Shown piece after piece: positions 12,101 to 60,135 of a DNA stretch of 64,000 bases. Each line of letters begins with the position of its first letter. The first letter of the stretch is position 1. A program made the position numbers and the translations under genes. The stretch comes from Scenedesmus sp. PABB004 (lineage: Eukaryota): contig JABVCE010000024.1 in the NCBI GenBank assembly GCA_014905635.1, positions 1 to 64,000 on the forward strand, read 5' to 3'. The notes beneath the pieces were generated by a model, which was not told where the DNA came from, did not search any database, and was given only the letters and a program-made list of their open reading frames with translations.

Positions 12101-14920
12101 GCCGCGCCGGACAGGCCGCGCTCGCGCAGCTCGGCGTCCAGGCGCTTGCGCGCCTCGGCCGCCAGCAGGTTGGGCACCTCGCACGCTAGCTGAAGACCGG
12201 CATTGTCAAGCACCAGCCCCGCTTCCTTGGCCGCCGCCTGCACTGCCGCCAGGTGCTCGCTGCTGGCCCGCGCCGGGAGCAGCGAGCGGGCCCCCGCAAG
12301 GAGCTGCAGGCGCCGCAGCACCGCGTCCGCCAGCGTGGTCTGCTCGCCGCCACCAGCGCCGTCGGCCCCCGACTGCCCGGTCGGGCCGACCTGCTGCAGC
12401 ACCGCGTCATATGACTCCCACAGCTGCTGCGACAGCACGCCCGCCCCCGCCAGCGCCGTCGCCGCCAGCTGCTCCCGCACGGTCGGTGCGCCGGCGCCGC
12501 TGTCGCTACCGCTGCCGCAGCCGCTGCTGGCGGCGCTGGCCCGCACCGCCTCCCTGCAGGCCGCCTCCACCGAGCCGGGCGGCGTCCAAAGCCCGAGCCC
12601 GGTCGGCTCGGCGCACGCCAGGGGCCCGCCCGCCCCAAACGGACCCGTGCGCGCCGCCGCCTCGCTGCCGCCTTGACGCGCGGCCGGCGCGCCGCCGTCG
12701 GCTGCCGCGTTGATGGCTGCGTTGGCGCCCTCAAAGCGGCGCAGCAGCTGCAGCAGCTCCACCACCTTGGCCACGGCGAGCTGCGGCTGCCGGGCCGCCT
12801 GTTGCGCCGCCTGCTGCGCCTGCTGCTGCTGCTTCTGCTGCGCCTGTTGCTGCTGCGGCTGCGGCTGCTGCTGCTGCTGCACCTGCTGCTGCTGCTGCTG
12901 CGGCTGCGGCTGCTGCGCCTGCTGCTGCTCCTCCTGCTGCTCCTGCTGCTCCTGCTGCTCCTGCTGCTCCTGCTGCTCCGGCGCGCCCTCCGTGGCCAGG
13001 TGCTGCTCGTCGTGCCAGACTTCACCCCATAGCCCCTGCAGCTGCGCCAGCACTGCCAGCAGCACTGTCGCCTGCAGCGGCACCTCGCGCTGCCAGGCGG
13101 GGCCGCCAGCGCGCTCCGCGGCCGCCAGGAAGCGCAGAATCAGCGCGCCGCCGAGCAGCCCCAGCTGTGCTGCGTCGGGGCTGGCAGCTCCAGGCAGCTC
13201 GTCACCGGCCTCTTCCTCCTCCTCCTCTGCCGGCGCGGCTGGCGCCGCTGCCGCTGCCGCTGCCGCTGCCGCTGCCGCTGCCGCTGCCGCTGCCGCTGCC
13301 GCTGCCGCTGCCGTCGCCGCTGCCGCTGCCGTCGCCGCTGCCGCCGACGGCGCTGCCGCTGCCGCCTCTGCCACCGCAGGCTCGGGCACGGCGGTGCCGC
13401 TGGCCTCGGGCTGCGTGGGGTGCAGCGCCGACGCGATCGACGCCAGCAGCGCGGTGAGGTTGGCCGCGACGCCGCCAGCGTCTGCCGGTGCCGGCTGCGC
13501 GCCCGCCTCGGCCGCCACCGCGGCGGCGGCGCCAGCCGGGGCGTGCTCGGTGGCACAGGCGGCGCACAGCCGCCACAGCGCCGCCGCGGCGTCGGGGCCG
13601 CCAGCGCCCTGCAGCAGCGCGACTGCGCGGCCGCTGTGCGCCAGCAGCGGGCTTGAGCGCGCGAACAGAAACGCCAGGCCCCCCATGCCCTCGTCGCTCA
13701 GGCCGTAGCGCGACGCAAACGCGGCGCCACGCGGCGAGCTGGCCGCCGCCTCGGGCCCGTCGGGGCTGCCGCACAGCAGCGCGAGCGCCGCCTCCAGCAT
13801 GACGTGCGCCGGCACCGCCAGCCCCATGGCCGCGGCCGCGGCCAGCGCGCCCGACCGCTCGCCTTTGAGAGACTGGGACAGCCGCAGCGCGTCGTGGCCG
13901 GGACCTTCCAGGAGTGATTCGTTCAGCGACTGCCGCACCGCCTCATCTACGAACACCCTGAGCGTCGCGCCGTGCTCGGGCGTGTCCGGCGGCAGCGGCT
14001 GCCTGCGCGGCGCGGCGCGGCGCGGCGCGGCGCGGCGCGGCGCGGCGGGCGCGGCGGCGGCTGAGCGCGCGGCAGCGCGGCCGCGGGCGCTCCCTGCCAG
14101 GGGCGCAGACCCGCCTCACCCGTCCACCAGCAGGCCGGCCGCCACGTCCGCCAGCAGCATGACGCGCACGTGCGGCGCCAGGCTGGCCAGCAGGTCCTGG
14201 TCGGCTGCGCGGCGGGGGCGGGGGCGGCGGGCGGCACGTGCTGGGCGCTGCGCGCAGCGCCTGGCGGGCGGCGCGCGGCGCGCCCCGGCGCACGGCGCAC
14301 CCTCGTCCTCCGTGCCGGCGCGGGCCGCAATGTTTTCCGCTACCTTTGTCGCGGTTCTGGCCACCTTGCTGCCGGCGTTCGTTCGCAGCACGCCAATGCA
14401 CGTGTGGGCCACGAGCAGGCGCAGCTCTGGCACGCCCCGCAGGGCCGCAAAGCCGTGCCGGCCCGCCGCCAGCCACGCAGCCATCCGCACCTGCGCGCGT
14501 GGGCGCAGCGGCGGCGGTGAGCGTGACTGCTGCGCAGCAGCAGCCGCGGCCGGCCGCACGAGGCTGCCCGCGCTCACCACGTTGACGTGCCGGGCCAGCC
14601 CGGGCTGCATGCCGTCCACCGCCGCGCCGCCGCCTCCCTCAAACAGCAGGCCTGCGACGGCCCGGGCGCGCAAGCCCGTGAGAACGCGCGCGCGCTCGCC
14701 GCGCTGACGGCGGACGTGCCGACGCGCGCGCGCGCGCGCGCGCGCGATTGCGCGCCGCACCCGGGTCGTGGGGCGTGTCCAGCGGCAGCAGCAGCCCAGC
14801 GCGCCGGATGGCATTGACCGCTGAATCGAACAGCTCTGCGACGGCTTTTTGCTGCGCCGGATGCATGAGGTGGCCGTGGGCCAGCAGCCACGCCTCGCGG
14901 GCCTGCGCGACGCTCGTCAT
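9101..14920 (-). CDS. Large hypothetical protein with poly-Ala/poly-Gln tracts and a C-terminal MYND-type zinc finger; multi-exon
   Basis: Spliced ORF from MTSVAQAREAWLLAHGH to DDASLLEELD*; contains CSECG...CAACGAVWFCSTSCRAAWW..DWHDVHC. Confidence 0.75.
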
Positions 14921-16337
14921 CGCGGCCGCTGCAGCGGCAGGCGCCGCCGTTGAATGGGCAGCCACCGGCCTCCTCGTGCAGCCGCCGCTGCTGCCGCCGC
15001 CGCCGCTGCCGCTGCCGCTGCCGCTGCCCTCCTGCTGTCCTCGAGTGTGCGCGCGGTAACCAGCAGCACCGGCCGGACGATGCGCGCGGCGGGCTGCGCG
15101 AGGCCCGCCGCCGCTGCTGCTGCGGGCCGGCCGCCGCTGCTGTCGCTGCCGCCGCCGCTCACGAGCGAACTCGCACTGTCCGCATTGGAGCGTCTGGCCG
15201 CGCGTCACCAAATGGGGGTAACGTTTTGGTTGGAAATTCCCAAATGCCCCGACCAAGAACCGCCGGGTGCAAAGCCGCGCAGTCCGTTCGCTCTCGGCGC
15301 ACTGCGCATCACGCCCGGCCGCTCCCCAGCGCCGCCGACACGGGAGGCGGCACCTTGAGCAGCTGCGCAAACACGGAGGCAGAGCGCAGCAGCGCCGCCT
15401 GGGTGTCCGCCAGCGCGGCCTGCTGCGCGGCGAGCTGCGCCTGCGTCGCGCGCGCCGCCCGGGAGAGGCCCGCAGTGTCGTCGACCAGCGCCGCGACCAC
15501 GCCCTCCACGCTGCGGCAGGCGCGGCCCTGCGGCACGCGCGCCGCGCGGTCGTCGGCGCGCGGCGCCGGCGGGCGGCGCGCAGCGCGCGCTGCGCGCGCG
15601 GCGCGGCGCGGCGCGCTGCGGCCGGCCGCGCGCACCTGCTGCGCCGCCAGCGCGTCGACCTTGCCCTCCAGCGCCGCCACGACGCGCAGGGAGGCCTTGG
15701 GGCTGGCTGCCTCCGCGCCCTCGAGCCCGCCCAGGCGGCCCGCGAGCGCGGCCGCGCCCGCCTCGCTGCGCTGTACCGCGCCGGCCAGGTCCGACACCGC
15801 AGCGCGCAGGCTCGCGCCCTCCTGCGCCAGGCGCGCCAGGTCGGATGCCAGCAGGTCGGTCGCGGCGGCGGCGTCGCGGCGCAGCGCCGCCGCGCTGGCC
15901 TCGACCGCGGCGTCGATGAGGCCCGGCGCGTGCGCGCTGACGCCGGCCGCCACCAGGCGCGGCACGTGCTCGCGCAGCGCCTCGCGCGCCAGGCCGACGA
16001 CCTGGCGGCCGCGCCGCGGCGCCCGCGGGCCGCGCGGCGTCAGCAACAGGAGAGGCAAGCGGCGAGCGTCAGCTCCTCGCCCCCCCCCCCCCCCCCGCCG
16101 CCCTTCCCCCAACAGCACACACACCTGGCCGCGCTGCGTCGGGTTGAGCGCCGCCGCTGCCGCGTCGTCCGCCGCCGCCGCCTGGCCCCGCTCCAGCTTG
16201 CTCAGCTGCGCGCGCAGGGCGGCGACCTCCCCCCGCAGCGCCTCCAGCCCCTCCTCCGCGCCGCACACTCGCTCGAGCTTGGCGTCCAGCCGCACCTCCA
16301 GGCGGCAGAGCGAGCCGAGCTTGGCCTGCACGCTGTC
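12878..16337. repeat. Direct segmental duplication, copy 1 (~3.46 kb), matching 32560-35948
   Basis: Near-identical sequence and identical ORF translations; copies differ by a few SNPs and microsatellite lengths. Confidence 0.97.
15309..16337 (-). pseudogene. 5'-truncated duplicate of the coiled-coil protein gene at 34924-36474
   Basis: Same exons (..QAKLGSLCRLEVRLDAKLERV.. to ..VSAALGSGRA*) but cut at the 16337 junction. Confidence 0.8.
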
Positions 16338-17632: not shown

Positions 17633-18163
17633 TCAGGGCCCCTCGCCCAGCAGCTCGCCAGCGCCATCTGTCGCGTCGCGGCCGCTGCTGCTGCTGTACG
17701 ATGGCGCCGACGCCGCCAGCCGCGCGGTGGCGCGCAGCCGCGCGCTCGCCGCGCCCCGCACGCTCGAGCCAGTGCCGCCGCGCCCGACGGCGCGCCCGCC
17801 TTCGCCGTCGCCCGGCGCGTGGCGGCCGCCAGTGACGCCGCCGTCGTTGCGGTTGACGTTGCGCGTGATCGTCCGCGAGCCGTGCTTGACACCACCGTCC
17901 AGCAGGCGCCGCCGCAGCGCCGCGCCGCCCAGCTCCGTCCCGTCAGCGGCTCGCTCGCCGCCGCCCCTGCCGCCGCGCTCCTGCTGCTGCAGGTGCCTGG
18001 TCGTGTGCTCCTCACTGGCGGCGTCGGCCGGGACCAGCTCCGGCGACGCGCCCAGCCGCTGCCGCGCTGGCTCGTGGAGCGCGGCGCGGCCGAGCGGCCG
18101 CGCCGCTGCCGCGCGGCCGAGCGGCACCACCACCAGCAGGCAGATCGCCAGAGCCACGCCCAT
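17633..18163 (-). CDS. Small single-exon secreted precursor protein
   Basis: Signal-like N-terminus MGVALAICLLVVVPLGRAAAA; RHLQQ and RRRLL motifs; TGTAA signal on the minus strand at 17556-17560. Confidence 0.55.
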   Translation of the reverse strand: MGVALAICLLVVVPLGRAAAARPLGRAALHEPARQRLGASPELVPADAASEEHTTRHLQQQERGGRGGGERAADGTELGGAALRRRLLDGGVKHGSRTITRNVNRNDGGVTGGRHAPGDGEGGRAVGRGGTGSSVRGAASARLRATARLAASAPSYSSSSGRDATDGAGELLGEGP

Positions 18164-18630
18164 CACCGGCGGCGCCTACAGGTCGAGCGTGCGGCGGCGG
18201 GAGGTCGGCGCAGCGCCGCAGCCTGGCCACCGCCCGCGCCGCGCGACGGCAGGCACCGTTGCGCCTGCAGGCCGGCTGGGATGGGCTGAAGGGCTACCAG
18301 CGCCCTGATCCGAGCCGGGAGCGGCCTGCGGCGTGCGGGGCGCGAGGGGCGCAGCTGGCTCCGCGATGTTTCGTGTCGCGGCGCACCTGGCCGCGCCCCC
18401 GGGCTCTACCGGCTCGTGCACAGGCTCCCGGCTCGCAATTAAACTGTCGAGTGCCTCTGCCAGGCTCGCCGCGATCCCCTGACGCAAGCTGCTCTGCCTT
18501 TGGGCACGCCTCCCCCGCGGGCTCTCCTGAGGGCGCTGTGCTTCGCGGCTGCGCGCGTCCAGATCGGAGACTGCGGGGCCACTGCGGGGCCAGAAAGCGC
18601 AGCCGGCTACAAGTCAACGGCCGCCCGGAT

Positions 18631-19888
18631 TCAGAGCGCCGCCGCCGCGCCGGTGGGCTCGCGCGTGAAGACGAACGTTCCCGCCGCGCCTGCGCCCGCG
18701 GTGGCGCGGCCGATGAGCATACTGTCGTCGAGGTAAGTGAGAAGGTACGGCGCCGCGACGCCGCGCCCCTCGGCGACCTGCTGCGCGTTCCGAAACGGGA
18801 AGACCACCTTGAACTGCTCGGAGCGCCAGGGGCGCGAGCGGGGAGGGAGCGAGAGTGGGAGGCAGGTCGCGCGCGCGGCAGAGCGTCAGCCCCCGCGGCG
18901 CGGCGCGGCGCGGCGCGGCGCGGCGCGCACCTCGCGGAGCGCCAGCAGCAGCTGCTGCTGGAGCCAGCCGCGCGGCAGCAGCGCCGGCGCAAGCAGCGCC
19001 TCGAGCGCGGGGCTGATGCGCACGCGGCCGAGCTGCGCCTCCTCAAACGTGAGCGCGATGCGCCGCCCGCTGCAGACCGTGTACCTACCGCGGCGCGCCG
19101 CGGCGCGCGCGCTGCGTCGGCGGCAGCGCACGGGGCGCGACCAGGGGCGGCGGCCGCGCGCCGGCGCGGCGCCCGCGCGCCCGCGCGCGCCGCGCGTGCC
19201 GCTCACGACGCGCCGACGGTGAATGTGAGGCCATTCTCCTCCGTCCCCGGCAGCGTGAACTGGATGACGTTCTCCACGCGCCCCTCGCCCGGCGGCGAGA
19301 AGCGCTGGAAGACGCCGCCGACGCGCAGCGGCGCGGGCAGGCCGCCCGGGAGGTGCGGCGCCTCGCCCAGCCCCACGATCGGCACCTGCGGCGCGGGCGG
19401 CCGGGCGGGCGTGGGCGCGGGCGGGCGTGGGCGGCCGGGCGGGCTGGGCGCTGGGGCGCCGCGTTGGGGGCCGCGCGCGCTGGGACACGCACCACGTCCG
19501 CCGCGGTCGTGTACGCAAGGCGCCACGTGCCCGCCAGCAGCTCATAGTCGAGGTCACCGACCGCGCACGCCTCGACCGCGACCTGCGCCTCCTCGATCTG
19601 CCCCCGCAGCGCCTTGCCCGCCCGCGCGCCGCGCGCCGTGCCGGCGACCCACGCCAGCAGCGCCGACTTGGCCGCCGCCGCGTCGGGCGGCGCCGCCGGT
19701 GCCGCCGGCGCCGCCGCCGCGCCGCAGCGGCAGCGGCGCGCCCGCGCGGCGTGTGGCTGCGGCGCAGGCGGTGCCGCCGCGCCGCGGCCGCCGGCGCGGC
19801 AGCTGCTGGGGCGGGCCAGAGCGGCGGGCCGGCCGCTGCTGGACGCCACGCCGGCGCTGCGGCCGGCGGCGCTGCAGGCTGCGGCCAT
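18631..19888 (-). CDS. Plastid lipid-associated protein / fibrillin (PAP); 4 exons
   Basis: KSALLAWVAGTARG, LAGTWRLAYTTAADV, RVENVIQF, RIALTFEEAQL, YLLTYLDDSMLIGRA..GTFVFTR; transit-peptide-like N-terminus. Confidence 0.9.
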
Positions 19889-20169
19889 GGTGCGCACACT
19901 GCGCGGTGCCGCTGGTGGGTGCTGGCTCGTCCGGCGGGCTGCTGTGTGTGGGAATGACCTGGCGCGCGCGCTGGCACCACTGGGAGCGCAGAACAAACAA
20001 CAAAGCAAGTTGAGCCCTCGGCCAACCGGTCGGTCGCCTCTCCTCTGCTCCTTGTGGGAGCGCTGCTGCCCCCGCCGCCTCAGACCCGACCTCCACACTC
20101 ACGCCAGCAGCGATCCGCACCGAGCGGCGCGCCCGGCACCGAGCGGCGCTCGGCGGCGCCGCCGCAGCG

Positions 20170-21139: not shown

Positions 21140-21484
21140 GCGCGCCGGCTGTGGCTTCGGCGAGCGAGTCGAACGCAGGCCGGTTGTTAACCCAGGCCGA
21201 GCTCAACCCGAGTTAACCCAGGCCGAGGCCCAACCCCGAGGACCTCAACCCCGAGGACCTCGCGCCGTGCGCTGCCGTTGGCACCGCGCCGCCGCGGCGG
21301 TCCAGCCCCCGCGTGGGTCAGCGCGCCTCCCACTCCGCGCGTCCAGCTCCTGGCGGCTAACTGGCGGCTAGGTCATGAGGCCCGCCGCAGCACGAACGGC
21401 GACCACAAACGGCGACCACACAGACTGCGCTCGCCGCCGCCCGCAGCGACCCACCCCGCCCACGCCCTGCCGCTGGCGGGCGCG

Positions 21485-22623
21485 ATGCTGCCGCTGGCAG
21501 CGAGCCCCGTGGCCGGCGGACGGGCCGGGCCGCTGCGCGCGGCGGCGGCGGTGGCAGCGGCCGCGGCAGCAGCTGAGGCGAGTGGTGGCGACAGGGCGCT
21601 GCACGTCCTGGCCTGGTGCGTGTGCGAGTGCCTGAACTGTTCGGAACGCCCTCGCCTGCACCCACAGACGTGCGCACTCTGTCTGGCACGCCGCCACGCA
21701 GGGGGCGCAACGCGGAGCTCCAGTGTGCCGTCGAGGGCGGCCTGCCGATAGTGGCACGGCCGACGCCGGTGCTGGAGCTGCATGGCCTGCCGGTTCTTGG
21801 GCTGGCGGCCGGGCCGCTGAGCTCGGCGGCGGTCGCGGGCGCGGCGGGCGCGTGGACGTGGGGCGACGGCGCCGCCGGCGCGCTGGGCCACGGCAGCGCG
21901 GGCCGCGTGGCGGCACCGTGCCGCGTCGAGGCGCTCGCGGGCGGCCGCGCGGCGGCGCTGCGCGGCGTGTCGCTGGGGCACTCGCACACTCTCTTCTTTG
22001 ACGCCGCGGGCGCGCTGTGGGCGTGCGGCGAGGGAAAAGAGGGGCAGCTGGGCCTCTCCCAGCCGCTGCAGGAGCTCGCGGCGCAGCACCGGCGGGCCTG
22101 GGCCCAGGCGCAGCTGCCCGGCGGCGCGCTGCCCGGCCGGCGGCCGGGCGTGGAGCGCGCCGCGCAGCTGCTCAGGGCGGCGGCGCCCGAGCCGGCTGGC
22201 CACGTCGCGCAGGGCTGGGGGAGCCTCGCGGGCCCCGGCGGCGGCGGCCAGGCACGGCAGCAGCTCGCGGCGGCGCTGCAATCCGGCGGCGGCTGGGCGC
22301 GCAGCGCCGCGCGGCGCGGCTGGCCGCCAGCGAGCCTGGGCGGCGGCCTGTTTGGCGGCGGCAGCGGCGCCGACCTCGGCATGAGCCTGGGCGCGTGGGG
22401 CGGCGGCGCTGACCTGGAGACCCACCTGCACGGTGTGGGCCTGCAGCCGGGCCAGTACGGCACGCCCGCGCGCGTCGGCGCGGGCAGCTGCGCCTCGCTG
22501 CTGGGCCTCGGAGAGCGCGGCGGCGGCGGCGGCGGCGCGTCGGCGGCGGCGGAGGACGAGGAGGCCAGCCTGGGCGCTGAAGTCGTGGTGGACGCCGCGG
22601 CGGGCAAGTTTTTCAGCGTGCTG
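21485..22623 (+). pseudogene. RCC1-repeat (UVR8/HERC-like) gene, 5' half, interrupted by an insertion
   Basis: VLAW/GRNAELQC, AWTWGDGAAGALGHG, VSLGHSHTLF..GALWACGEGKEGQLG; stops mid-repeat at VVDAAAGKFFSVL. Confidence 0.85.
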
Positions 22624-22750
22624 CGGCGGCCGGAGACACGGCCGCCGTCGCGCGCGCGTGCGCGCGCGCGCCTGGGCGCACCGGGCGTCTGAGGTGCGGA
22701 ACGACGTAAAGATGCATGTGCCGCCGACCAGCGCCGCCGGCCGCAGAACC

Positions 22751-23032
22751 ACGCTGTGGTACTTCTGCCCCGACGTCGCGGGCGCGCGCGCCGCTGCCGC
22801 GCCCATGCAGGACGACGTCGCAGAGCTGCACCACGCTGCGGACGCGCTGGTGGACGCGTGTGAGGCGCACGCGGACACCTTTGCAGCCACCTTTGGCGCC
22901 GAGCAGATCGCGGAGCGTGAGGCCGCCATCGCGCGGCAGGCGGAGGCCGCGCAGAGCCGCACGCGCGACGCTGCCAAGCGCGCGCTCGCGGCGCACGTGC
23001 TGCTCATGGGCGGCGGCGGGCGGGCCGCGTGA
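22751..23032 (+). other. Orphan helical coding fragment inside the insertion (possible captured exon)
   Basis: After a CCGCAG acceptor it reads TTLWYFCPDVAG..MQDDVAELHHAADALVDACEAHADTFAATFGAEQIAEREAAIARQ..*, with protein-like composition unlike the spurious ORFs. Confidence 0.4.
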
Positions 23033-23564
23033 GGGCGCGCGGTGGCGGTGGCGGTCGGGCGCACCCTGGTGCTGCGGGAGGTGCAGGAGGCCATGCCAAG
23101 CGCCAGCGGCGGCCGCCTGGTCCCCGCGCCTGGTCCCCAGCCGCCTGCTCCCCGCGGCGACCTGCGCAGTGGTGGTCGAGGACTCGCGCTGTACGAGGGC
23201 GCGGTGGGCGGCGGCTAGCGGCGCAGCGGGCAGGCCAAACGGCGGCCAGCCCTGAGTCTGGCGGCTGCTGCGCAGCACGACGAATTTGGCGACGCGCGCG
23301 ACTGCTGATGCAGCGGGCGGCTGCGGGCTGCGCAGGCGGGTGCCACCCAGTGGGTGCGGCGGCTGCTGCCGTCTCGCGGGCGCGGCCGGGTCACGGCAAG
23401 GCGGTTTCTCAACCGAGTCCGATTCTTCACCGTGTGCGCCACGCCAATCCCGAGCGCGGTCGGAGCGCACCGCGAGGGAAAAAACTACGCGGCCGCGCCC
23501 CCGCAACCGAGCTCTCGCGAGCAGCACCACCGAACACCCGCACATATGTAGTATTGAGCACTGA

Positions 23565-23569
23565 TTACA
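23565..23569 (-). promoter_or_regulatory. Putative TGTAA polyadenylation signal of the cargo gene
   Basis: TTACA on + strand in an AT-richer patch about 360 nt past the stop at 23928; TGTAA is the established chlorophyte signal. Confidence 0.45.
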
Positions 23570-23693
23570 CAACGTCGCCGCCGTCTCTGCCGCCTCGCGC
23601 GCCACCGCCGCCGTCAACGCTGCCTCGCCCGCCGTCGCCGCCGAGCCTGCCGTCGCAGCCGCAGCCAGCCAAGCCTGCCGCCGTCGCCGCCTC

Positions 23694-23763
23694 TAGGGTT
23701 AAGGTTTAGGTTTAGGTTAGGTCGCCGCCTCTAGGGTTTATGTTTAGGTTAGGTTTAGGGTTA
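23694..23763 (+). repeat. Degenerate interstitial telomere-like repeats (TTTAGG/TTAGG/TTTAGGG) in two blocks
   Basis: tagggttaaggtttaggtttaggttagg and tagggtttatgtttaggttaggtttagggtta, each preceded by gtcgccgcctc. Confidence 0.8.
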
Positions 23764-23927
23764 AGCCGCAGTCGCCGCCGCCTTGCCCGCCACGGCCGGC
23801 TTTCTTGTCTATAAGCGCGCGCACCGCGAGGCGCTCGCCGCCCTATACGCCGGCCGCACCGCGGGCCACGGCTGCGGGCCAATAGCGACGTCGCGCGCGC
23901 GCGCGGGTTGTGCCGGGAAACACAAGA

Positions 23928-26900
23928 TCACCGGCCGCAGCCACTGGATTGGATTCCCGGGTCACGGCAGTCAAAGGCGCGGCAGGAGTCCCAGAAGAGG
24001 TCGTTGAGCTTGCAGGTCTTCTGGCAGCAGTCGCCGCCGTCCCACCCGCAGGCAAGCGTGTTCAGGTCGCCGTCGCAGCGGCCGTTGGCGAGGCGCACGT
24101 CGCCAGGGGCGACCGGGCACGCGGCGTTGGCGTCGCCGCCGCTCGTGTCGGGCGCGGGGCAGTTGCCGGCGCCGGCCGCCACGACGTACGCGGCCGCCGT
24201 CATCATCGTCGGCATGCTGCCGTCCGGGTTGAGGCAGGCAAACTTGGAGGCCGAGCACACGAGCATGTCGGCGGGGAGCCCGCTGCCATCCGGGGAGGCG
24301 GCGGCGTCGGCGGCGCCATCCGGCGCCCTGCACGTCCCTGCGCAGCAGTCGCCGCCGTCGTACGAGCAGATTCCAACGTTGAGCGGGCCGTTGTCGCAGA
24401 TGCCGTTGCCGACGTCGGCGATGGTGAGGTTGAGGCTGGAGGCGCTGCTGATGGCGTCCAGCCAGACGGCGCACGGCGGGGGGCCTTGGTTGCCGCCTCC
24501 GCCGCCGCCGTCGGCAGGAGGTGCAGGCGCGCTGGCGGCGCCGCCGCTGTCGGGTGGAGGCGCCTGCGGCGGCGAGCTCGCTGTGCTGGCGTCCAGGCTG
24601 CTTGGGGCGCCAGCAGGCACGGCGACGCCCGAGTCGACGGCCATGGCGGCGGCCGAGGTGGTGCCGGCGACTGCGTCCGGCGCGGGCGCAGCAGCGGTAG
24701 CAGCTGGGTCCACTTGGACGCTGCTTGTGTTGCTGGCCGCGACGCCGCCGCCGCCGCTGCGCTGGCGCTGCTCCGCGATTGCCGCGTCGAGCGCCTTGCT
24801 CAGCCAGGGGGGCGCCAGCGTGTAGTTGGCGGCCGGCGAGTCCTGCAGCAGCAACCGCAGGCGGCGTGGGATGCTGGACTCGGGCGGCGGCGTGATGCCG
24901 GTGCAGTCGTCCATGCGCCAGCACGCGTCGAAGACCTCGGCCACGCGCACCCAGTCGATCGCGCACGTCGGGCAGTCGGAGCAGTCGGACGGCAGCGCCG
25001 ACCCCAGGGCGGCAGTGGTGGTCCGGTTGGGGCAGCGCGTGCACACGGTGGCGCCGGCGGCGTCAGCAAAGGCGCCGACGGGGCAGGGCGCGCACACGAC
25101 CGCAGCGACGTCGGGCGCGTACGTCCCGGGCTGGCACGGCGTGCAGCTGGCGGCGCCGGCCGCCGCCCACGTGCCGGGCGCGCACGCCGTGCACTGCGTC
25201 ATGTTGGCGTCGCGGTACGTGCCGCTGGCGCACGGCGCGCAGCCGTGCGTGACGTTGCTCCAGACAAATCCGGGGTCGCACGCGGTGCACTGGGCAGACC
25301 CGGCAGTCGACGTCTCGGCGGGGCTGCAGGGCAAGCAGGCGTCGAACGTGGCGGCGCCGCTGGCGGGCTGGTAGGTGCCGGCCGGGCAGGCGGTGCAGTT
25401 GGTCTGGCCTTGCTCGGCGGCAAAGTAGCCAGGCGAGCACTGCGTGCACGCCGCCGAGCTCCGCGCCTCGGAAATGGAGCCGGCGGGGCTGTGTGGTGGC
25501 GGGGTGCGGGTGGGCGAGAGGTGGCAGCGAGTGAGTCGGGTGCGGACGAGAGGCTACAAGCACACGGCCAAGCCGCAACCGCCGCGCGCCACGCGGCCGC
25601 GCGCGCGCGCCCAGCAGCACTCACCAGCGCGCACAGGCGCCCATGTCCTGCGACCTGTACTCGCCAGCCAGGCAGGGCACGCAGCCAGCGGGGGTCGTCG
25701 CGTTGGAGCCGGTCTGCACCATCACGTTGGCGGTGCCGGCGTTGCACATGCACGCCAGCTTGACCTGCAGCGCCTCGTCGGGGGTGGACCACCCCAGCGG
25801 CGCCTCCAGCTGCGACGCGTCCAGCGTGCACGGCCCATCTGACGCGCACGTCGCGTGCGCGACGGCACTGGTGACGTCCGCCGTGCTGGTGCCGGCACCC
25901 AGCTCGGCGTGCGTGACGCGCGGCGACACGTCGCTGGTGGCGCAGGACAGGCTCACGGCGCTGGCGCGGTACTCGAGCATGAGCGTCAGGCCCCGCGCAG
26001 GCACGGTCACCTGCACCGCGCCGCCGCCGCCGCCGCCGCTCGGAGCGCCGGCGGCGGCAGCGGCCGCCAGGCCGGCGACGCCTTGGGACGTGCGCAGGTG
26101 CAGGCCGCCGCTGGCGCTCGGCACGATGGCAAAGGGATCGAAGCCGCCCTGGCTGATGGCGCCGTCCACGCCCAGGAGGTGGCGGCGGCGGCGGCGGCGG
26201 CGGCGCGAGCTGCCGGGCGTGATGATGATGCCGCTGAGGCTGTCGAGCGGCACGCGGGTGGGGTCGACGCACAGGTAGGTCTGCGGCGGGTGGCGCCAAG
26301 CGGGGAGGGGAGGGTTTAGTGGAGGCTTGGGAGGGCAGGGCGCGGCGCCGGGCGAGGGTCTGTGCACGCGCGTGCGCGCACCAATCGCAAGCCTGCGCCG
26401 CATCCCCCCCCCCAAGGCCCGCGCACGCGCGCACCAGCGAGAGCGTGTCGACGCCGCGCAGCGGCACCGGCGCCGCGCCGTCGTCCGGCTCCGCGAAGGC
26501 CGATCGAGTCTCGTCGATGTTGAAGTCGGTGCGGTTGCAGTTGTTGTGCGGCAGCGCCGACCACACCGCGTAGCCGATCATGCAGTGCCATAACCACCGC
26601 TCGCCAGGGGGGGCTAGGCCGGCAAACCCTTTATTTGTTTGTTTGTTTTTCATTTTGCCGCACGGGAAGCGCAGCAGGGAGGTGTAGTCAAATGCGCAGC
26701 CCTGGAACACGCGCTGCGCCTGCGTCATGACCGCTATGTAGCTGGCGTTGGCGCACACGACCCGGGCGTCGACGCCGTCAGCAAACGCGGTACGCAGGTA
26801 CTTGCCGCTGCCGTTGTCCGAGGTGAGGTCCTGGTTGTCCGGCAGCGGCACGCCCAGCAGCGCTGTGAGGGACCTCTCGAACCGGTCGATCGCCTCGGTG

Positions 26901-28054
26901 ACCGGCTTCGCGAGCTTGTCCACCTGCTGCTCGAGCTCGTCGATGAACCTGAGGTCGAAGCCGACCAACTTCAGTTCCATCCATGAGCAGCTCAGGCTCA
27001 GGCCGTCCATCTTGCAGCTGAGCGCGTCGAGCAGGGGCTTGAACACGACGTCGATGGCGCCGCCGAGGAGCTTGGCGACGTAGTCTCCCACCCAGTCAAG
27101 CGCGCTCATGATGAGGTCGGCGAGGCTGCACACCCACGTGAGCGGGCACACCGTGCCGCACTTGGTGCATCTCCAGCAGTTCCACTTCGGCCACCACCAG
27201 CACACCTTGAAGCAAAAGTCTGCGGGGCACTTGATGCTATCGATAAACCAAGAGATATAGCCGAGGGCCGGCTCGAGCGCCGCGGCGATCGGCTCGAGCG
27301 GCGCCATGACGGTGTCGTACGCAGACTTGACCGCGCTGCCAAACGCCTTGACCTTGTCGATCACCGGCTTGATCGCGGCGACCGGCGGGTCAATCACGTC
27401 GCGCAGCGACGTGAGAACCGCGGTCGCGCTGCCGACCGCGGTGTACAGCTGGCTGAGCGGGCTCGAGTCAAGGCGCAGCCAAATGGTGTCATCGTTGCCG
27501 CCGGCTGCCGCGGCTGCCGTGCCGTTGCCGCCGCCGCCGCCGTCGCCGTGCAGGCGGCGCCGGCTGCCCCAGCCGGCCTTGTCGCAGTCGGACCGCGGCC
27601 CGACAACGTTCCACTTGAAGGTGCTGCTGTCGTCAAAAATGCAGACCGCAAAGGGGTACAGGCGCGGCTGCGTGCCGGCTGGGTACATTAGCGCTGCCGG
27701 GTTGTTGCGGCCGCTGGCGGCGGCCGCGTCAACCCAGTCCTGCACCACATAGCGCACCCAGGCGTTGGAGCTTGCCTGCGCCGCGCGCGCATACGTCGGC
27801 AGCCACACGTTGAGCCACCAGGCGACGATCGGCTCATAGTGCGTGCGGTGTTTGTTGATTTCGATGAGGCGCATCACCGTCTTGGTCAGCTTGCTATCCT
27901 GGTCGCTGCGGTGGCACGGGCGGGCAGGGCGGGCGGGCGCGTCGCGTCGCGCAGCGCGCGCCGAGGCGGGTCAGCAAACGCCGCGGCAGGCAGGGCATAT
28001 GCGCGGGCGGGAGCGCGGCCTCTCCCAGGCCTCACACCCGCCCCTGCCCCCACG

Positions 28055-28096
<42 letters not shown>

Positions 28097-29577
28097 TGGT
28101 CACCACACGCGCGCGCGCTCACCACATGCTGGTCATTTTCGTTTGCCAGTCGGCGTTGCCTCTGCCTTCGCAATAATTGAAGGACGCCTCGTTACACCAC
28201 TCGCCCGGCACTCTCAAAAACTTGAGCGGCCCCAACCTGCTGAGGCTGGCCAGGCCCTCGCCCAGGCGCTTGGTTAAGCCGCAAATGCTGTTGTAGCCCG
28301 GCATCACGCCGCCGGTGATGGGAAAGGTTTTAAACCATACTTTGAACGCGCCTTTTTTGGTCGCGTAGCTGTTTGTGCCGCCCATGCCGCACAGCATGCC
28401 ATACGCTGGTGTGTCGGCGGGCGACGGTGGGGCGGTGGGTGGGCGGGTGTGAGCGGCGGCGAGAGGCGTGTCAAGCCGCTGGCTGCAGCGGGGGCAGCGG
28501 CGCGCGCTTGGCGGGGCGCGCGTGCCCGCGCCGCCGCCGTCGTCGCCGCTGCCGCCGCGGCCGTCTCAGGCCACTCGCAACGGCACGGCACGCACGCGAG
28601 CCGCCCGCCAGGCCCCCTCTGCTCTGCCCTGCGCTCACTGTTAAACGCGATGTTGATGACCTCGTTGAAGCCCAACCTGCGGGGGAAAAACAAGAGAAGG
28701 GGGTGGGTGCGGGAGGGGGACACATGAAGGGGGCGGGGGCGCAGCAGAGAGCGAACTCGCGGCGTGGGCGCGAGGCGCCATGCAGACCCCTCCCCCCGCG
28801 CACTGATGGCACCCAACCACAACGCCTCTCGTGCGCCTCGCGCACCACGACTGTGCCTGGATGTCATCGGGCATGAAATCCTTCAAGACACGCAGAGTGA
28901 AGACGCTGAGGAACACGTTGACCGGCGTCGTCGGGTCGAGCACTGCGCGTGCGTGCGACGCAGGGCCGAGTCACCGTCAGTCGCCGCGCGCGGCGGTGCA
29001 GCGCGTGCGCGCGCGGCGGCGCTGGCCTCCCGCCACCCGGCGGCGGCGGCGCCAGCCGGCGGGCCGCCCAACCTGAACCTGAGCCTACATTGCGTGAACA
29101 CAGCCGCCGCCACGCGCGATCCTATGATGGCATCCTCCAGCTCGAAGAGGGCGCTGCACTCCCTCCAGGTGGCGTAGCCGCCAAAGCACGTGCTATTGCG
29201 GACCGCGTTGACGGCGGTCAGGTTGAGCTTGGAAGAGTCCCACTGCCGTGGGTGGGGTGGGGGCGCAGGCGGGGGTGAGTGGGCGAGCAGGCACGGCAAC
29301 CGCAACAGTGTGTGACCGACTGAAACGAGGAGGGGGGCCGCCGCCGCCAAAGTTGCCAGGAGCCCCGTGAATGCCGGCCGCGCGCGCCGCGCGCCGCGCG
29401 CCGCGCGCCGCCCTCCACGCGACGCACGTCGGCAGAGTCGTAGATGAAACTCCACGGGCGGCACAAATACTGCTCGGCAGAGCCTTTGGGGGCGTCAGCG
29501 CAGCCCGCCGCGGCGGGGCTCAGCAGGGCCAGCACGAGCGCGGCGGTGAGCGTGGTGGCGGCGTTCATGCGACGCAT
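23928..29577 (-). CDS. Large secreted Cys-rich protein: signal peptide, unknown N-terminal and helical domains, GCC2/GCC3 (ephrin-receptor-like) repeats, two LNR/Notch-like repeats; 7 exons
   Basis: All six GT-AG introns splice in frame; CxxCPAGTY-type repeats at about 25000-25700; GNGICDNGPLNVGICSYDGGDCC and ANGRCDGDLNTLACGWDGGDCC. Confidence 0.85.
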
Positions 29578-30155
29578 GTTCCGGAGGGCAGCCGAGCGAG
29601 CGAAAACGGCGTCGAAAGCGGTGGGGCGCAATCAGGTATCGAGTGGGACGTGCTCTTTCGCAGCGCCGGTACCGGCGCCACATGACAGGCACCATCCCGG
29701 CGCACGCTTGCCTTATGAGCCGCGCAGAACGGAACGAATGCTCTATTTTATTCTCTTTTATGCGCTCTTTGTGCCACGCGCTCCCTCCCCAGACGCTTCA
29801 CCATTCCGCTCTCTTTGTTTGATCTCTTTTTTTTTCTCTTTTTTTGTTTCTGCTCTTCTTTTTTTTGTCCCGCATCTACTCTAGAATTCCCTGGCGCACG
29901 CCATCCCACCGGCCGGCTTGGGGGATGGGGCGGCAGGGGCAGGGGCGCCGCCCCGCTGCTGCTGGCAGCAGCAGCGCCGCGCCGCGCCGCCGCCGCCCCA
30001 ACACCGACCATGGGCAGCCTACGAACGCCGGCCGGCCGCCTGAAACAGGCCACAGCGGCGCGCAGGCGTGGCGGCTGGGTGCCGGCCCGCAGGTCGTTCC
30101 CCGGCGAGGGGTCCCCCACCCGGAACGGGTGACAAGGGCGAGAAACACAACACAA

Positions 30156-30999
30156 CGCACCGCCAAGGGCGAGGTGTGGACCTTCGGTGAGTGAGCGTCG
30201 GCTCAGCCGGCATGGGCGCTGACAGGGCGCCGCCCGGCCCGCAGCGCGCCCGCCTGGCGCGAGCCCGGGCAAGGGCGCGCCGCCGCACGCGCCCTGAGGC
30301 CCCAGGCGCGCCGCCCGCCGCTCCGGCGCAGGCGCCGACTACAACGGCGCGCTCGGCGGCGGCGACGCGAGCTGGCTGAGCTCGCCGCGCCGCGTGGCGG
30401 CGCCCATCGCCGCCGCGCTGGCCGCCGACGGCGGCGCCGTTGCCGTGGCGGCGGGGGGCACGTTTGCCGCGGCGCGCACCGCGGCGGGGAGCGTGCTGGT
30501 GTGGGGCCGACTCGGACCCGCGACGCCGGCGGCGGCACCGTTTGCGCGCGTCGCGCTGCCGCGCGGCGTGGCGGTGCGCGGCATGGCCGCCGGTCAGCAG
30601 CACCTGCTTATGACGGACGGCGCCCGCGTGTGGGCCGTGGGGCGCTGGCTGGACGCCGCGGGCGACGAGGCCGGCGCCGCGTGCGCGTCGGCGCCGTGCG
30701 AGCTGCTCGCGCTGCCCGGCGGCGCGGGCGTGGCGCGTGTCGCGGCCGGCGCGCACGCGAGCGCCGCGGTCACCGACGACGGCGGTCTGTGGCTCTGGGG
30801 CCGCCTGCTCGACGAGCAGCACGGCCACGGCCTGCTCCGCCGCGCCGGCAGCGCTGCCGCGTCCGCAGGAGCCCCCGCGCCCGTGGACTGGCGCTGGGCG
30901 GGCTTCGGCGGCGCCACGCCGCGCCGCGTCGAAGAGCTCGGCGCGCGCGTGCGCGACGTCGCACTCGGGGGTTGGCACGCGCTGGTGCTGACCGACTAG
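30156..30999 (+). pseudogene. RCC1-repeat gene, 3' half, continuing 21485-22623
   Basis: RTAKGEVWTFG/ADYNGALG, VAAGGTFAAARTAAGSVLVWG, MAAGQQHLL, VAAGAHASAAVTDDGGLWLWG, VALGGWHALVLTD*. Confidence 0.85.
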
Positions 31000-31531
31000 T
31001 CGGTCAATCCCCCCGCGGCGGACGTAGCAGAGCACGGAAGCAGGTGTCGGGCGGCCGTGCAGCCTCGGCAGCAGGCGCTGCGCAAGCGCCCGCGGCCGCG
31101 GGCGGCCACGGGCTCGTCGGGGAGCGGGTCTCAAGCAGCGGGCAGTTCATTTCATCTTGATCAAGACGACAATCGATTGTCGGTGTGTGCGTTTGCCGCC
31201 GTGCGCGCGGCCACAGTCAACCATTTGCCCCCCGCGCGCTGATCCCGACGGCGCGGCGTGCGTCGCCGGCCAGCCGCTAATCAAGAGCCCGTCCGCCGCA
31301 AAATCAAGAGCACGGCGCACGAGCGCCCATAGCCGGCCAGAGCGCCGCCGGCGCCACACAGCTCAATGCCTAGTACGAGTGCCCTCCCCACGATGGCCGC
31401 GCCGCTGCTGCTGCCACGATCCAGGTCATGCCGCGCCAGCGCCACTGCCCCACCGCCGACTCTCAAGACAGCGCAAAGCCCCGGGCGTCGTGTGTCAGGC
31501 CTGCGCCGCAAGCGCTATCCCGCACCACCGG

Positions 31532-32559
31532 TCAAGGCGTGTTGGTCTCGGGCGCGAGCAGCCCGGACGCGCCCCACACGGCCTGCGTGGCCTTGGGGTT
31601 AAAGTTGGCGTTGGTGTAGTAGCACTTGTCGGGGCACTTGGGCATGCCCGGCGGCACCGTCGCCGCGGCGATGCCCTCGGGGTCCTCGATGATCGCGATG
31701 CCCTGCGCGTGTGACGAAGGCCCGAGGGAGGCGCGAGGGCGAGGGGAGCGCGGCGGGGCGCGCGTGGGCGAGGCAAGGGCGCGCAGCGCGCGAGCCCGCC
31801 GACGGGGCAGGCCGCGGCGGGCGGCGCGGCAGCGGCGCCCCGCACCTGCCCCATCAGCTCGTGCGCCGCGATGTGGCAGTGCAGCGGCCACACGCCGGTG
31901 TTGTTGGCCACGAACCTGCGCGCGTCGCGGCGCGGCAGGGGCCTCCGCGCGGCGCCCCGGCGTCGCCGGCGGCGGCGCGCGCGCGCGCTAGGGCGCACCT
32001 GATGGCGACCCACGCGGCGGCGTCCTCGGTGGTGCCGTTGAAGAGCACCGTGGTCGTGTCGCGCAGCACGGGGGTGGCCGTGTAGCTGGGGCCGCCGACG
32101 AGCTCGGGCGACCACGCGCCCATGCCCATGCCGACCTGCCCGCGGCGGCGGCGCGACGCGGGTGGGCCCGCCGGGCGTGCGCGCGTGAGAGCGCGCGGCG
32201 GCGCCTCGCGCCTGAAAAAAGTGATGGCCGTGAAGGTGAAACGAATGCTGCTCGCGCCCGTTGCGCGCGCTGGTGAGCGGGGAGGTCGTGTTGTACTCGC
32301 CGCCGTTGGCGCCGGCGCGGAGGTTCTGGATGACGATCTCGACCACCTCGCCGCGCTTGGCTGGCGGCGCGCGAGTTGGGGAGGCAGGCGGGTCGCGGCG
32401 CGGGGCGCTTGCGCGTTGCTGGCGGCGCGGCGCGGCGTGCAGAGCAGCACGCCAGCGGCGGGCGCTGCGCTCGGCGGCGGCGCGGAGGGGGCGCGGCGAG
32501 CAGCGGGCCATCCCCGAGCGCACCGGTGAGGACGTGCGTGCCGGCGCCGGGCTTGAGCT
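31532..32559 (-). pseudogene. 3' part (third cupredoxin domain) of a multicopper oxidase, ascorbate oxidase/laccase-like; 5' part absent
   Basis: [55 protein letters not shown]; cut at the 32560 junction. Confidence 0.88.
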
Positions 32560-34541
32560 TGCACCTGCTGTTGCTGCTGCTGCTGCTGCGGCTGCGGCTG
32601 CTGCGCCTGCTGCTGCTCCTCCTGCTGCTCCTGCTGCTCCTGCTGCTCCGGCGCGCCCTCCGTGGCCAGGTGCTGCTCGTCGTGCCAGACTTCACCCCAT
32701 AGCCCCTGCAGCTGCGCCAGCACTGCCAGCAGCACTGTCGCCTGCAGCGGCACCTCGCGCTGCCAGGCGGGGCCGCCAGCGCGCTCCGCGGCCGCCAGGA
32801 AGCGCAGAATCAGCGCGCCGCCGAGCAGCCCCAGCTGTGCTGCGTCGGGGCTGGCAGCTCCAGGCAGCTCGTCACCGGCCTCTTCCTCCTCCTCCTCTGC
32901 CGGCGCGGCTGGCGCCGCTGCCGCTGCCGCTGCCGCTGCCGCTGCCGCTGCCGCTGCCGTCGCCGCTGCCGCTGCCGTCGCCGCTGCCGCCGACGGCGCT
33001 GCCGCTGCCGCCTCTGCCACCGCAGGCTCGGGCACGGCGGTGCCGCTGGCCTCGGGCTGCGTGGGGTGCAGCGCCGACGCGATCGACGCCAGCAGCGCGG
33101 TGAGGTTGGCCGCGACGCCGCCAGCGTCTGCCGGTGCCGGCTGCGCGCCCGCCTCGGCCGCCACCGCGGCGGCGGCGCCAGCCGGGGCGTGCTCGGTGGC
33201 ACAGGCGGCGCACAGCCGCCACAGCGCCGCCGCGGCGTCGGGGCCGCCAGCGCCCTGCAGCAGCGCGACTGCGCGGCCGCTGTGCGCCAGCAGCGGGCTT
33301 GAGCGCGCGAACAGAAACGCCAGGCCCCCCATGCCCTCGTCGCTCAGGCCGTAGCGCGACGCAAACGCGGCGCCACGCGGCGAGCTGGCCGCCGCCTCGG
33401 GCCCGTCGGGGCTGCCGCACAGCAGCGCGAGCGCCGCCTCCAGCATGACGTGCGCCGGCACCGCCAGCCCCATGGCCGCGGCCGCGGCCAGCGCGCCCGA
33501 CCGCTCGCCTTTGAGAGACTGGGACAGCCGCAGCGCGTCGTGGCCGGGACCTTCCAGGAGTGATTCGTTCAGCGACTGCCGCACCGCCTCATCTACGAAC
33601 ACCCTGAGCGTCGCGCCGTGCTCGGGCGTGTCCGGCGGCAGCGGCTGCCTGCGCGGCGCGGCGCGGCGCGGCGCGGCGCGGCGCGGCGGGCGCGGCGGCG
33701 GCTGAGCGCGCGGCAGCGCGGCCGCGGGCGCTCCCTGCCAGGGGCGCAGACCCGCCTCACCCGTCCACCAGCAGGCCGGCCGCCACGTCCGCCAGCAGCA
33801 TGACGCGCACGTGCGGCGCCAGGCTGGCCAGCAGGTCCTGGTCGGCTGCGCGGCGGGGGCGGGGGCGGCGGGCGGCACGTGCTGGGCGCTGCGCGCAGCG
33901 CCTGGCGGGCGGCGCGCGGCGCGCCCCGGCGCACGGCGCACCCTCGTCCTCCGTGCCGGCGCGGGCCGCAATGTTTTCCGCTACCTTTGTCGCGGTTCTG
34001 GCCACCTTGCTGCCGGCGTTCGTTCGCAGCACGCCAATGCACGTGTGGGCCACGAGCAGGCGCAGCTCTGGCACGCCCCGCAGGGCCGCAAAGCCGTGCC
34101 GGCCCGCCGCCAGCCACGCAGCCATCCGCACCTGCGCGCGTGGGCGCAGCGGCGGCGGTGAGCGTGACTGCTGCGCAGCAGCAGCCGCGGCCGGCCGCAC
34201 GAGGCTGCCCGCGCTCACCACGTTGACGTGCCGGGCCAGCCCGGGCTGCATGCCGTCCACCGCCGCGCCGCCGCCTCCCTCAAACAGCAGGCCTGCGACG
34301 GCCCGGGCGCGCAAGCCCGTGAGAACGCGCGCGCGCTCGCCGCGCTGACGGCGGACGTGCCGGCGCGATTGCGCGCCGCACCCGGGTCGTGGGGCGTGTC
34401 CAGCGGCAGCAGCAGCCCAGCGCGCCGGATGGCATTGACCGCTGAATCGAACAGCTCTGCGACGGCTTTTTGCTGCGCCGGATGCATGAGGTGGCCGTGG
34501 GCCAGCAGCCACGCCTCGCGGGCCTGCGCGACGCTCGTCAT
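32560..34541 (-). pseudogene. 3'-truncated duplicate of the MYND-finger gene, ending in the poly-Gln tract
   Basis: Same 5' exons as 12878-14920, abutting the multicopper oxidase exon out of frame. Confidence 0.8.
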
Positions 34542-35948
34542 CGCGGCCGCTGCAGCGGCAGGCGCCGCCGTTGAATGGGCAGCCACCGGCTTCCTCGCGC
34601 AGCCGCCGCTGCAGCCGCCGCCGCCGCTGCCGCTGCCGCTGCCCTCCTGCTGTCCTCGAGTGTGCGCGCGGTAATCAGCAGCACCGGCCGGACGATGCGC
34701 GCGGCGGGCTGCGGGAGGCCCGCCGCCGCTGCTGCTGCGGGCCGGCCGCCGCTGCTGTCGCTGCCGCCGCCGCTCACGAGCGAACTCGCACTGTCCGCAT
34801 TGGAGCGTCTGGCCGCGCGTCACCAAATGGGGGTAACGTTTTGGTTGGAAATTCCCAAATGCCCCGACCAAGAACCGCCGGGTGCAAAGCCGCGCAGTCC
34901 GTTCGCTCTCGGCGCACTGCGCATCACGCCCGGCCGCTCCCCAGCGCCGCCGACACGGGAGGCGGCACCTTGAGCAGCTGCGCAAACACGGAGGCAGAGC
35001 GCAGCAGCGCCGCCTGGGTGTCCGCCAGCGCGGCCTGCTGCGCGGCGAGCTGCGCCTGCGTCGCGCGCGCCGCCCGGGAGAGGCCCGCAGTGTCGTCGAC
35101 CAGCGCCGCGACCACGCCCTCCACGCTGCGGCAGGCGCGGCCCTGCGGCACGCGCGCCGCGCGGTCGTCGGCGCGCGGCGCCGGCGGGCGGCGCGCAGCG
35201 CGCGCTGCGCGCGCGGCGCGGCGCGGCGCGCTGCGGCCGGCCGCGCGCACCTGCTGCGCCGCCAGCGCGTCGACCTTGCCCTCCAGCGCCGCCACGACGC
35301 GCAGGGAGGCCTTGGGGCTGGCTGCCTCCGCGCCCTCGAGCCCGCCCAGGCGGCCCGCGAGCGCGGCCGCGCCCGCCTCGCTGCGCTGTACCGCGCCGGC
35401 CAGGTCCGACACCGCAGCGCGCAGGCTCGCGCCCTCCTGCGCCAGACGCGCCAGGTCGGATGCCAGCAGGTCGGTCGCGGCGGCGGCGTCGCGGCGCAGC
35501 GCCGCCGCGCTGGCCTCGACCGCGGCGTCGATGAGGCCCGGCGCGTGCGCGCTGACGCCGGCCGCCACCAGGCGCGGCACGTGCTCGCGCAGCGCCTCGC
35601 GCGCCAGGCCGACGACCTGGCGGCCGCGCCGCGGCGCCCGCGGGCCGCGCGGCGTCAGCAACAGGAGAGGCAAGCGGCGAGCGTCAGCTCCTCGCCCCCC
35701 CCCCCCCCCCGCCCTTCCCCCAACAGCACACACACCTGGCCGCGCTGCGTCGGGTTGAGCGCCGCCGCTGCCGCGTCGTCCGCCGCCGCCGCCTGGCCCC
35801 GCTCCAGCTTGCTCAGCTGCGCGCGCAGGGCGGCGACCTCCCCCCGCAGCGCCTCCAGCCCCTCCTCCGCGCCGCACACTCGCTCGAGCTTGGCGTCCAG
35901 CCGCACCTCCAGGCGGCAGAGCGAGCCGAGCTTGGCCTGCACGCTGTC
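32560..35948. repeat. Direct segmental duplication, copy 2 (~3.39 kb), matching 12878-16337
   Basis: Near-identical to copy 1, with shorter poly-Gln, poly-Ala and (GC)n tracts. Confidence 0.97.

Positions 35949-59073: not shown

Positions 59074-60135
<1,062 letters not shown>

Follow-up and report, generated by a model that had tools for sequence, protein, structure and literature searches.

A 7.5-kb block carrying a complete intron-containing gene interrupts one of two RCC1-like paralogues in the green alga Scenedesmus sp. PABB004

An interrupted RCC1-like exon and its intact paralogue

The DNA analysed here, referred to as the window, comprises positions 1 to 64,000 (forward strand) of contig JABVCE010000024.1 from Scenedesmus sp. 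PABB004 (assembly GCA_014905635.1). It is about 78% guanine plus cytosine (GC) and carries genes with short GT-AG introns. One of these, an RCC1-like ('UVR8') gene, is interrupted in its second exon by a block of 7,532 bp that holds a whole gene, Scube1, on the opposite strand (Table 1). A preliminary description of this DNA had the RCC1 reading frame stop at 22623 and resume 7,532 bp later at 30156, and both the sequence and the alignments agree with these coordinates. On the left, the plus strand reads CTG (up to 22623) and then CGGCGGCCG-GAGACA-CGGCCGCCG; on the right, the frame restarts at 30156 with CGC ACC GCC AAG GGC GAG GTG TGG ACC TTC G.

One exon and, within it, one β-propeller repeat of the RCC1 gene is interrupted. 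Pfam recognises RCC1 upstream of the block (E 2.6e-10) and RCC1_2 downstream of it (E 2.8e-11). The peptides KFFSVL and RTAKGEVWTF at its two edges join gap-free, with no residue lost or added, when aligned with a paralogue from the same alga (P0001, KFFSVAATAKGEVWTF), and protein alignment with five full-length orthologues gives the same result; a further orthologue (P0003) does not cover the upstream side. The break falls between P0001 residues 344 and 345, inside an RCC1_2 repeat that spans residues 332-360 (profile positions 1-29 of 30; Pfam). Joining the halves restores a complete RCC1 repeat, as had been proposed, and with RCC1 or RCC1_2 matches on both sides and the break inside a single repeat, the gene has the make-up of an RCC1 repeat protein.

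Read from its upstream half, the RCC1 frame meets a stop 22 codons into the block, so that the interrupted copy probably yields a truncated product only. No database protein of 409-2000 aa is 100% identical to this copy, which indicates that annotators did not model it whole. If the insertion reading is correct, annotations would do well to mark both halves as a single disrupted paralogue.

A protein search with the part downstream of the block returned ten relatives, of which P0001 is the best (95% identical, 575 aa, named UVR8 at NCBI, Scenedesmus sp. PABB004). It is uninterrupted and is encoded on a contig of 1,505,820 bp in the same genome. The divergent neighbour of the RCC1 gene, the fibrillin gene PAP10, has been duplicated together with it: the window PAP10 is 100% identical to an NCBI protein of this alga (P0035, 539,907-bp contig), and a second PAP10 (P0036) lies on the 1,505,820-bp contig, as does P0001. 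The second copies of PAP10 and RCC1 are roughly 94% identical to those of the window. The alga carries two diverged PAP10-RCC1 pairs, one interrupted (window) and one intact (the other contig). Relative to window positions 17633-31000, the second copies of PAP10 and RCC1/'UVR8' constitute a segmental duplication. Between P0001 and the window RCC1 copy, 31 exonic residues differ among ~529 aligned (~94% identity), not counting 24 differences in alignment columns 61-93, where the window row is intron read-through. Because P0001 is uninterrupted and the orthologues are colinear, the uninterrupted state is considered ancestral, and the existence of the intact paralogue makes the broken copy redundant. 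A metagenome scan for orthologous RCC1 DNA that might carry an intron at the break site returned a single locus (L001), which at 27% identity is not an orthologue and was set aside.

The presence of two similar RCC1 loci brings up an assembly artefact, in which 7.5 kb would have been mis-joined into the RCC1 exon, perhaps by way of these loci. The region is duplicated in the genome, the window contains a 3.4-kb repeat in addition, and repeats are known to provoke assembly errors. Such an artefact is nevertheless very improbable: it would take a pair of erroneous joins, placed at neighbouring nucleotides in a single exon, with the same diverged copy on both flanks, and the block itself is unique sequence and not a repeat.

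Table 1. Coordinates of the interrupted gene, the inserted block and associated features in the window
Feature	Position	Strand	Remarks
3.4-kb direct repeat, copy 1	12892..16337	+	97.8% identity to copy 2; sharp right border
PAP10 (fibrillin) gene	17633..19888	-	Divergent neighbour of the RCC1 gene; duplicated together with it
RCC1-like ('UVR8') exon 1	21485..21615	+	ATG at 21485; peptide mapping, N-terminus matches paralogue P0001; donor GTGCGT at 21616
RCC1-like intron 1	21616-21701	+	86 nt
RCC1-like exon 2, upstream part	21702..22623	+	Ends ...KFFSVL, codons AGC GTG CTG; Pfam, alignment
Inserted block	22624..30155		7,532 bp; borders as first read, true ones possibly up to 3 nt beyond these at either end
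Left-end hairpin	22624..22647	+	9-bp stem; fold z -1.98, 7/200 shuffles as good
In-frame TGA ending the RCC1 frame	22690..22692	+	22 codons into the block; open reading frame 21577..22692, tail RRPETRPPSRARARARLGAPGV
'Orphan exon' open reading frame	22712..23032	+	106 codons, ATG to stop; begins 88 nt from the left end
TGTAA, likely Scube1 poly(A) signal	23565..23569	-	Motif scan
Telomere-like repeat	23683..23765		Two 38-nt units, degenerate TTTAGG/TTAGG; in Scube1 3' untranslated region
Scube1 (cargo gene)	23928..29577	-	1469 aa; 8 exons (29577 down to 23928), 7 GT-AG introns of 136-233 nt; exact mapping of P0011
Scube1 upstream region	29578..30155	-	578 bp, T-rich tract, GC 0.64; extends to the right block end
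Right-end hairpin	30117..30131	+	6-bp stem; chance level, z -0.60, 59/200 shuffles; 24 nt from block end
RCC1-like exon 2, downstream part	30156..30186	+	RTAKGEVWTF + G; followed by gt at 30187
RCC1-like second intron	30187-30331	+	145 nt
RCC1-like last exon	30332..30999	+	TAG stop at 30997-30999
3.4-kb direct repeat, copy 2	32565..35948	+	97.8% identity to copy 1

Contents and borders of the block

The block holds a whole intron-containing gene, as the preliminary description had recognised. Its eight exons encode a protein 100% identical to NCBI Scube1 of Scenedesmus sp. PABB004 (P0011, 539,907-bp contig). The protein has a signal-peptide-like N-terminus and three Ephrin_rec_like stretches (Pfam, E 1.3e-20), as well as LNR-like modules scoring just below threshold (Notch/LNR, 21.1 bits; cut-off 21.2). 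Its N-terminal ~730 aa, including a Cys/Trp-rich CWWWPKWNCWRC stretch, match no Pfam family. A search of 1.8 billion representative proteins gave 15 relatives at E<=1e-3, distant or mostly short fragments, and the protein database holds no second PABB004 copy of 807-2571 aa. Scube1 is essentially an uncharacterised secreted-protein family of Scenedesmaceae-like algae. In green algae TGTAA serves as poly(A) signal, and the minus-strand TGTAA listed in Table 1 is likely that of Scube1.

Within the 3' untranslated region of Scube1 lies a separate curiosity, a telomere-like repeat that accounts for 4 of the 6 TTTAGG hexamers in the window. Each of its two units consists of GTCGCCGCCTC and degenerate TTTAGG/TTAGG motifs, with a GC of 0.44 vs 78% for the genome, and it may be an interstitial telomere-like relic.

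By codon usage, Scube1 is a native gene. The GC of the block (0.64-0.75) is lower than that of the flanking RCC1 exons (0.81), and a foreign origin was considered on that ground; it was rejected, since Scube1 has a third-position GC (GC3) of 0.893, vs 0.926-0.928 in PAP10 and RCC1, its introns have a GC of 0.78, as the genome does, and the deficit resides in codon positions 1 and 2. A search of viral contigs for a relative of the cargo gene found none. Next to the left end of the block lies what the preliminary description had called an orphan exon. It is an ATG-to-stop open reading frame (ORF) with coding-like composition (GC1/2/3 about 0.79/0.60/0.90); neither a Pfam family (best match PriC, E 0.018, below threshold) nor a relative in the protein database was found for it.

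At its ends, the block reads CG...ACAA and is flanked by ...CTG on the left and CGC... on the right. No target-site duplication (TSD) of at least 2 nt is present, the single overlap being a 2-nt CG that the block start has in common with the right flank. Comparison of the termini and of the repeats in the window gave no terminal inverted repeat (TIR) or long terminal repeat (LTR) at the block ends, GCC-type low-complexity sequence being the sole repeats there. When the first 40 nt of the block are compared with its last 300 nt, no inverted match is longer than 9 nt, and 179 of 500 random pairs match over at least that length. In these respects the preliminary description, which gave no TIRs or LTRs, at most a 2-bp CG overlap and no splice sites at the exact ends, was accurate. 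It had also noted terminal hairpins, and both exist: the 5' hairpin is of marginal significance and one of 105 hairpins with a 9-bp stem in 64 kb, and the 3' hairpin is at chance level, perfect 6-bp-stem hairpins occurring 17 times per kb. Directly after the left terminal hairpin, a (CG)n tract (22649-22671) forms a second 9-bp hairpin and is a potential Z-DNA or fragile motif near the breakpoint.

Where the window has L and R on either side of the junction, P0001 has A and A; at the first of these positions, four of the five orthologues with coverage also have A. With 31 of ~529 residues differing overall, and if sites are assumed to be independent, both junction-adjacent differences would be expected by chance with a probability of ~0.003. 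RCC1-derived sequence is thus certain only up to 22620 (V) and from 30159 (T), and the claim that the frame is split between two codons is not secured. Codons 22621-22623 and 30156-30158 are possibly inserted or filler DNA, with up to 6 nt of the target replaced, as judged at the protein level. The two residues look altered and suggest an imprecise junction, which fits end joining better than precise transposition; such imprecision suggests end joining, of which it is typical, rather than transposase or HUH chemistry.

A further reading is that the block is a giant intron with nested genes, removed from the RCC1 pre-mRNA by canonical or non-canonical splicing. By sequence inspection, GT/GC-AG or AT-AC borders as in U2 or U12 spliceosomal introns are absent at the exact block ends and within the 2-nt CG shift. 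The sole in-frame canonical pair, GT 22618 with AG 30166-30167, does flank the block; its use would remove 7,550 nt and delete VL and RTAK, i.e., six residues in the middle of the RCC1_2 repeat, the length of which is the same in the paralogue and in five orthologues. The pair is also a poor match to local splice sites, with GTGCT/AAG vs donors GTGCG or GTGAG in 9 of the 11 annotated window introns and acceptors CAG in 9/11 and TAG in 2/11. These introns are 107-497 nt long. A giant intron would agree with both RCC1 halves being open and alignable, with the balance of derived changes between the two copies (13 vs 9, see below), and with the lack of a plus-strand TGTAA that could end a read-through transcript within the block, although only about one such motif is expected there by chance. 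With no identical full-length RCC1 protein in the database, as noted above, and no Rfam family, group I and group II introns included, at E<=0.1, this reading is considered unlikely.

The arrangement has some likeness to nested genes and to introners, in that the span of one gene encloses another gene read from the opposite strand and the continuity of an exon is broken. Introners are short and multicopy and bring their own splice sites. The block, in contrast, sits within an exon, has no splice signals at its ends and exceeds the 11 local introns 15- to 70-fold in length. Two other candidates were set aside. IRE1/HAC1-type splicing was dismissed by eye on comparing the junctions (CUG|CGGC on the left, CAA|CGCA on the right, 7.5 kb apart) with the consensus for the splice loops. 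A retrocopy derived from a read-through transcript, with its start 88 nt ahead of the small ORF, was dropped, there being neither a poly(A) tail nor a TSD.

Origin of the block

The preliminary description took the block for a gene-capturing, non-autonomous mobile element acting at the DNA level. Its first half holds, in that an intron-containing block that is not a canonical intron interrupts the gene in the DNA; the mobile-element half finds no hallmark in the window. Both block termini are single copy within the 64 kb. A Pfam scan of 302 stop-to-stop ORFs across the window (in three sets of 127, 94, and 81) found no domain of the type borne by transposable elements (TEs), i.e., transposase, reverse transcriptase, integrase, Rep, helicase, or recombinase. 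The matches were to ordinary genes only, namely Pyr_redox_2, Arm, fibrillin, a Cu-oxidase_2 fragment, topoisomerase III, SelO, CLC channel, and Mpv17.

Known families of elements provide specific points of comparison. Canonical Helitrons have 5'-TC and 3'-CTRR ends, insert between A and T, and have a GC-rich hairpin at a distance of about 10-12 nt from the 3' end; a family comprises multiple copies with shared termini and has an autonomous Rep/helicase partner. Helitron2/Helentron elements have asymmetric terminal inverted repeats, in which the 5' end is complementary to subterminal 3' sequence. Like the block, Helitrons and Helitron2 elements carry host gene fragments with introns, lack TIRs and a TSD, and show a hairpin close to one terminus. 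The block differs from them by its CG...ACAA termini between G and C, which are not TC...CTRR, as the preliminary description had already seen; by a sole 3' hairpin that is a chance-level 6-bp stem 24 nt from the end; and by the lack of asymmetric terminal inverted repeats, the best inverted match being the 9 nt that random pairs often reach. The resemblance to rolling-circle/HUH elements that had been drawn from the hairpins and the missing TSD does not hold up against these features, nor against those of Un3/Un12, and no Rep or helicase domain lies in the window.

One report (10.1101/2022.05.23.493040) describes several element classes in green algae, namely gene-sized Helitron2, which is active there and includes a 20.4-kb element, Cryptons, and the Y1-Rep (HUH) elements Un12/Un3. 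The latter, known from Chlamydomonas and linked to rearrangement breakpoints, come nearest to the original idea; as described in the same source, their insertion sites lie upstream of RG and they generate a TSD of variable length. The right flank of the block starts with CG, there is no TSD, and no Rep gene lies nearby within the window. Cryptons lack TIRs and recombine at a short shared core, and the block start and right flank do have 2 nt (CG) in common. However, the Crypton target is given as CAYCG (10.1101/2022.05.23.493040), whereas the junction pentamer is CAACG, which is not repeated at the termini; CACCG occurs only 2 nt inside the right flank, and the window holds no recombinase gene or domain. 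TIR or LTR elements are likewise a poor match, with neither terminal repeats nor a TSD present.

A non-autonomous, cargo-bearing DNA transposon belonging to a type that is undescribed or poorly known, mobilised in trans (e.g., by HUH/Rep or a tyrosine recombinase) and leaving no TSD or TIRs, is accordingly held to be improbable. It would account for a clean insertion with no TSD and an overlap of at most 2 nt, for a left end whose very first nucleotides form a 9-bp hairpin with another behind it, and for the absence of a second long cargo copy from the database, as cut-and-paste movement would give; green algae do host the classes named above. Set against this are the termini that are unique within the window, the 64 kb free of TE protein domains, a terminal inverted match and a 3' hairpin that do not exceed chance, ends and target unlike those of Helitron, Un3/Un12 and Crypton elements, and junction residues that look altered. 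In addition, the genome is reported to hold few repeats: PMC12571836 gives it as 39.8 Mb in 77 contigs with 78.5% GC, 1.31% repeats, and 7,092 genes, figures with which the composition of the window agrees. Slightly more doubtful still is the specific proposal of an undescribed class, i.e., a TIR-less, TSD-less, hairpin-initiated non-autonomous element that would be mobilised in trans (e.g., by Y1-Rep/HUH or tyrosine-recombinase enzymes) and relocate a complete, intron-containing host gene together with its promoter to a new locus, in this case the exon of a redundant RCC1 paralogue. If the termini were multicopy, a new way to move whole genes would be shown, and the locus would matter much more.

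The favoured explanation, with a probability of roughly 0.55, is that a native segment was inserted in a single event, by end joining or insertional translocation, into a paralogue that was redundant, without a transposon. The segment moved would comprise the short ORF and complete Scube1 with its 0.58-kb upstream region and its poly(A) signal. Non-homologous or microhomology-mediated end joining would have placed it, either as an insertional translocation or as a captured fragment, in exon 2 of the RCC1 gene in one of the two paralogous PAP10-UVR8-like pairs, with the loss or replacement of perhaps up to 6 nt at the target. Because the other RCC1 copy is intact, the interruption could be tolerated, and Scube1, lying on the other strand, would depend on a promoter of its own for transcription.

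The junction has what such an event leaves behind: ordinary native DNA that is unique within the window, no TSD or terminal repeats, microhomology of 0 to a few nt, and a probable small change of the target as read from the protein. A precedent is found in Chlamydomonas, where genomic 'junk' fragments co-insert at breaks (10.1101/464859), and the block resembles these and other end-joining captures or insertional translocations in its lack of a TSD and of terminal repeats and in its microhomology of 0-2 nt. A Chlamydomonas study describes double-strand break repair as dominated by end joining and non-TE translocations as lacking homology and often being accompanied by small deletions.

Several observations weigh against an end-joining origin. 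The fragments captured in Chlamydomonas are mostly <300 bp and at most ~1 kb long (10.1101/464859), compared with 7.5 kb here, and the block moved a whole, functional-looking gene. Since no second long Scube1 copy was found, the segment was either moved, or its donor has been lost or is unannotated, and at least three breaks would be needed, an event rarer than simple capture. A 9-bp hairpin begins precisely at the left block end, a coincidence found at only ~0.2% of positions. Lastly, the residues that differ between the two RCC1 copies are balanced, with 13 derived in the window, 9 derived in P0001, and 9 ambiguous, and the window copy has no frameshift. Either the insertion is recent or the window copy is still constrained or used, and it is this balance that keeps a spliced giant intron under consideration.

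Were insertion of a native segment by end joining the true history, the locus would be a natural case in which a duplicated gene has been knocked out, Scube1 has been relocated, and one gene has become nested in another. Its setting, a compact, repeat-poor, 78% GC green-algal genome, would bear on structural variation where end joining dominates.

Surrounding sequence

The two copies of the 3.4-kb direct repeat lie ~19.7 kb apart and bracket PAP10, the split RCC1 gene, and a Cu-oxidase_2 fragment; the left border of the repeat is in a (CTG)n tract. Such an A-B-A layout would be expected if a circle had integrated through homologous recombination, or if part of the region had been duplicated in tandem. 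A long ORF (34837-37920) with the Toprim domain of a topoisomerase III gene has its start within copy 2. On the minus strand at 31498-32691, only the C-terminal domain of a multicopper oxidase is present (Cu-oxidase_2, E 4.3e-13), and no N-terminal oxidase domain was found in any ORF of at least 40 aa between 31 and 34.8 kb, so this piece may be a gene fragment left by rearrangement. Because the 3.4-kb repeat brackets the region and the Cu-oxidase_2 fragment stands alone, the neighbourhood has been rearranged more than once, a setting that speaks for an end-joining or rearrangement origin of the block.

Towards the right end of the window, 60093-63392 has very long ORFs on both strands (GC3 0.88-0.94) and tandem repeats at 62029-62942 with 78-81% identity; it looks like a repetitive coding region, without a Pfam match. 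At the left end, positions 1-1740 form a tandem satellite with a period of ~173 bp, copies that are 94-96% identical, and a GC of ~0.87.

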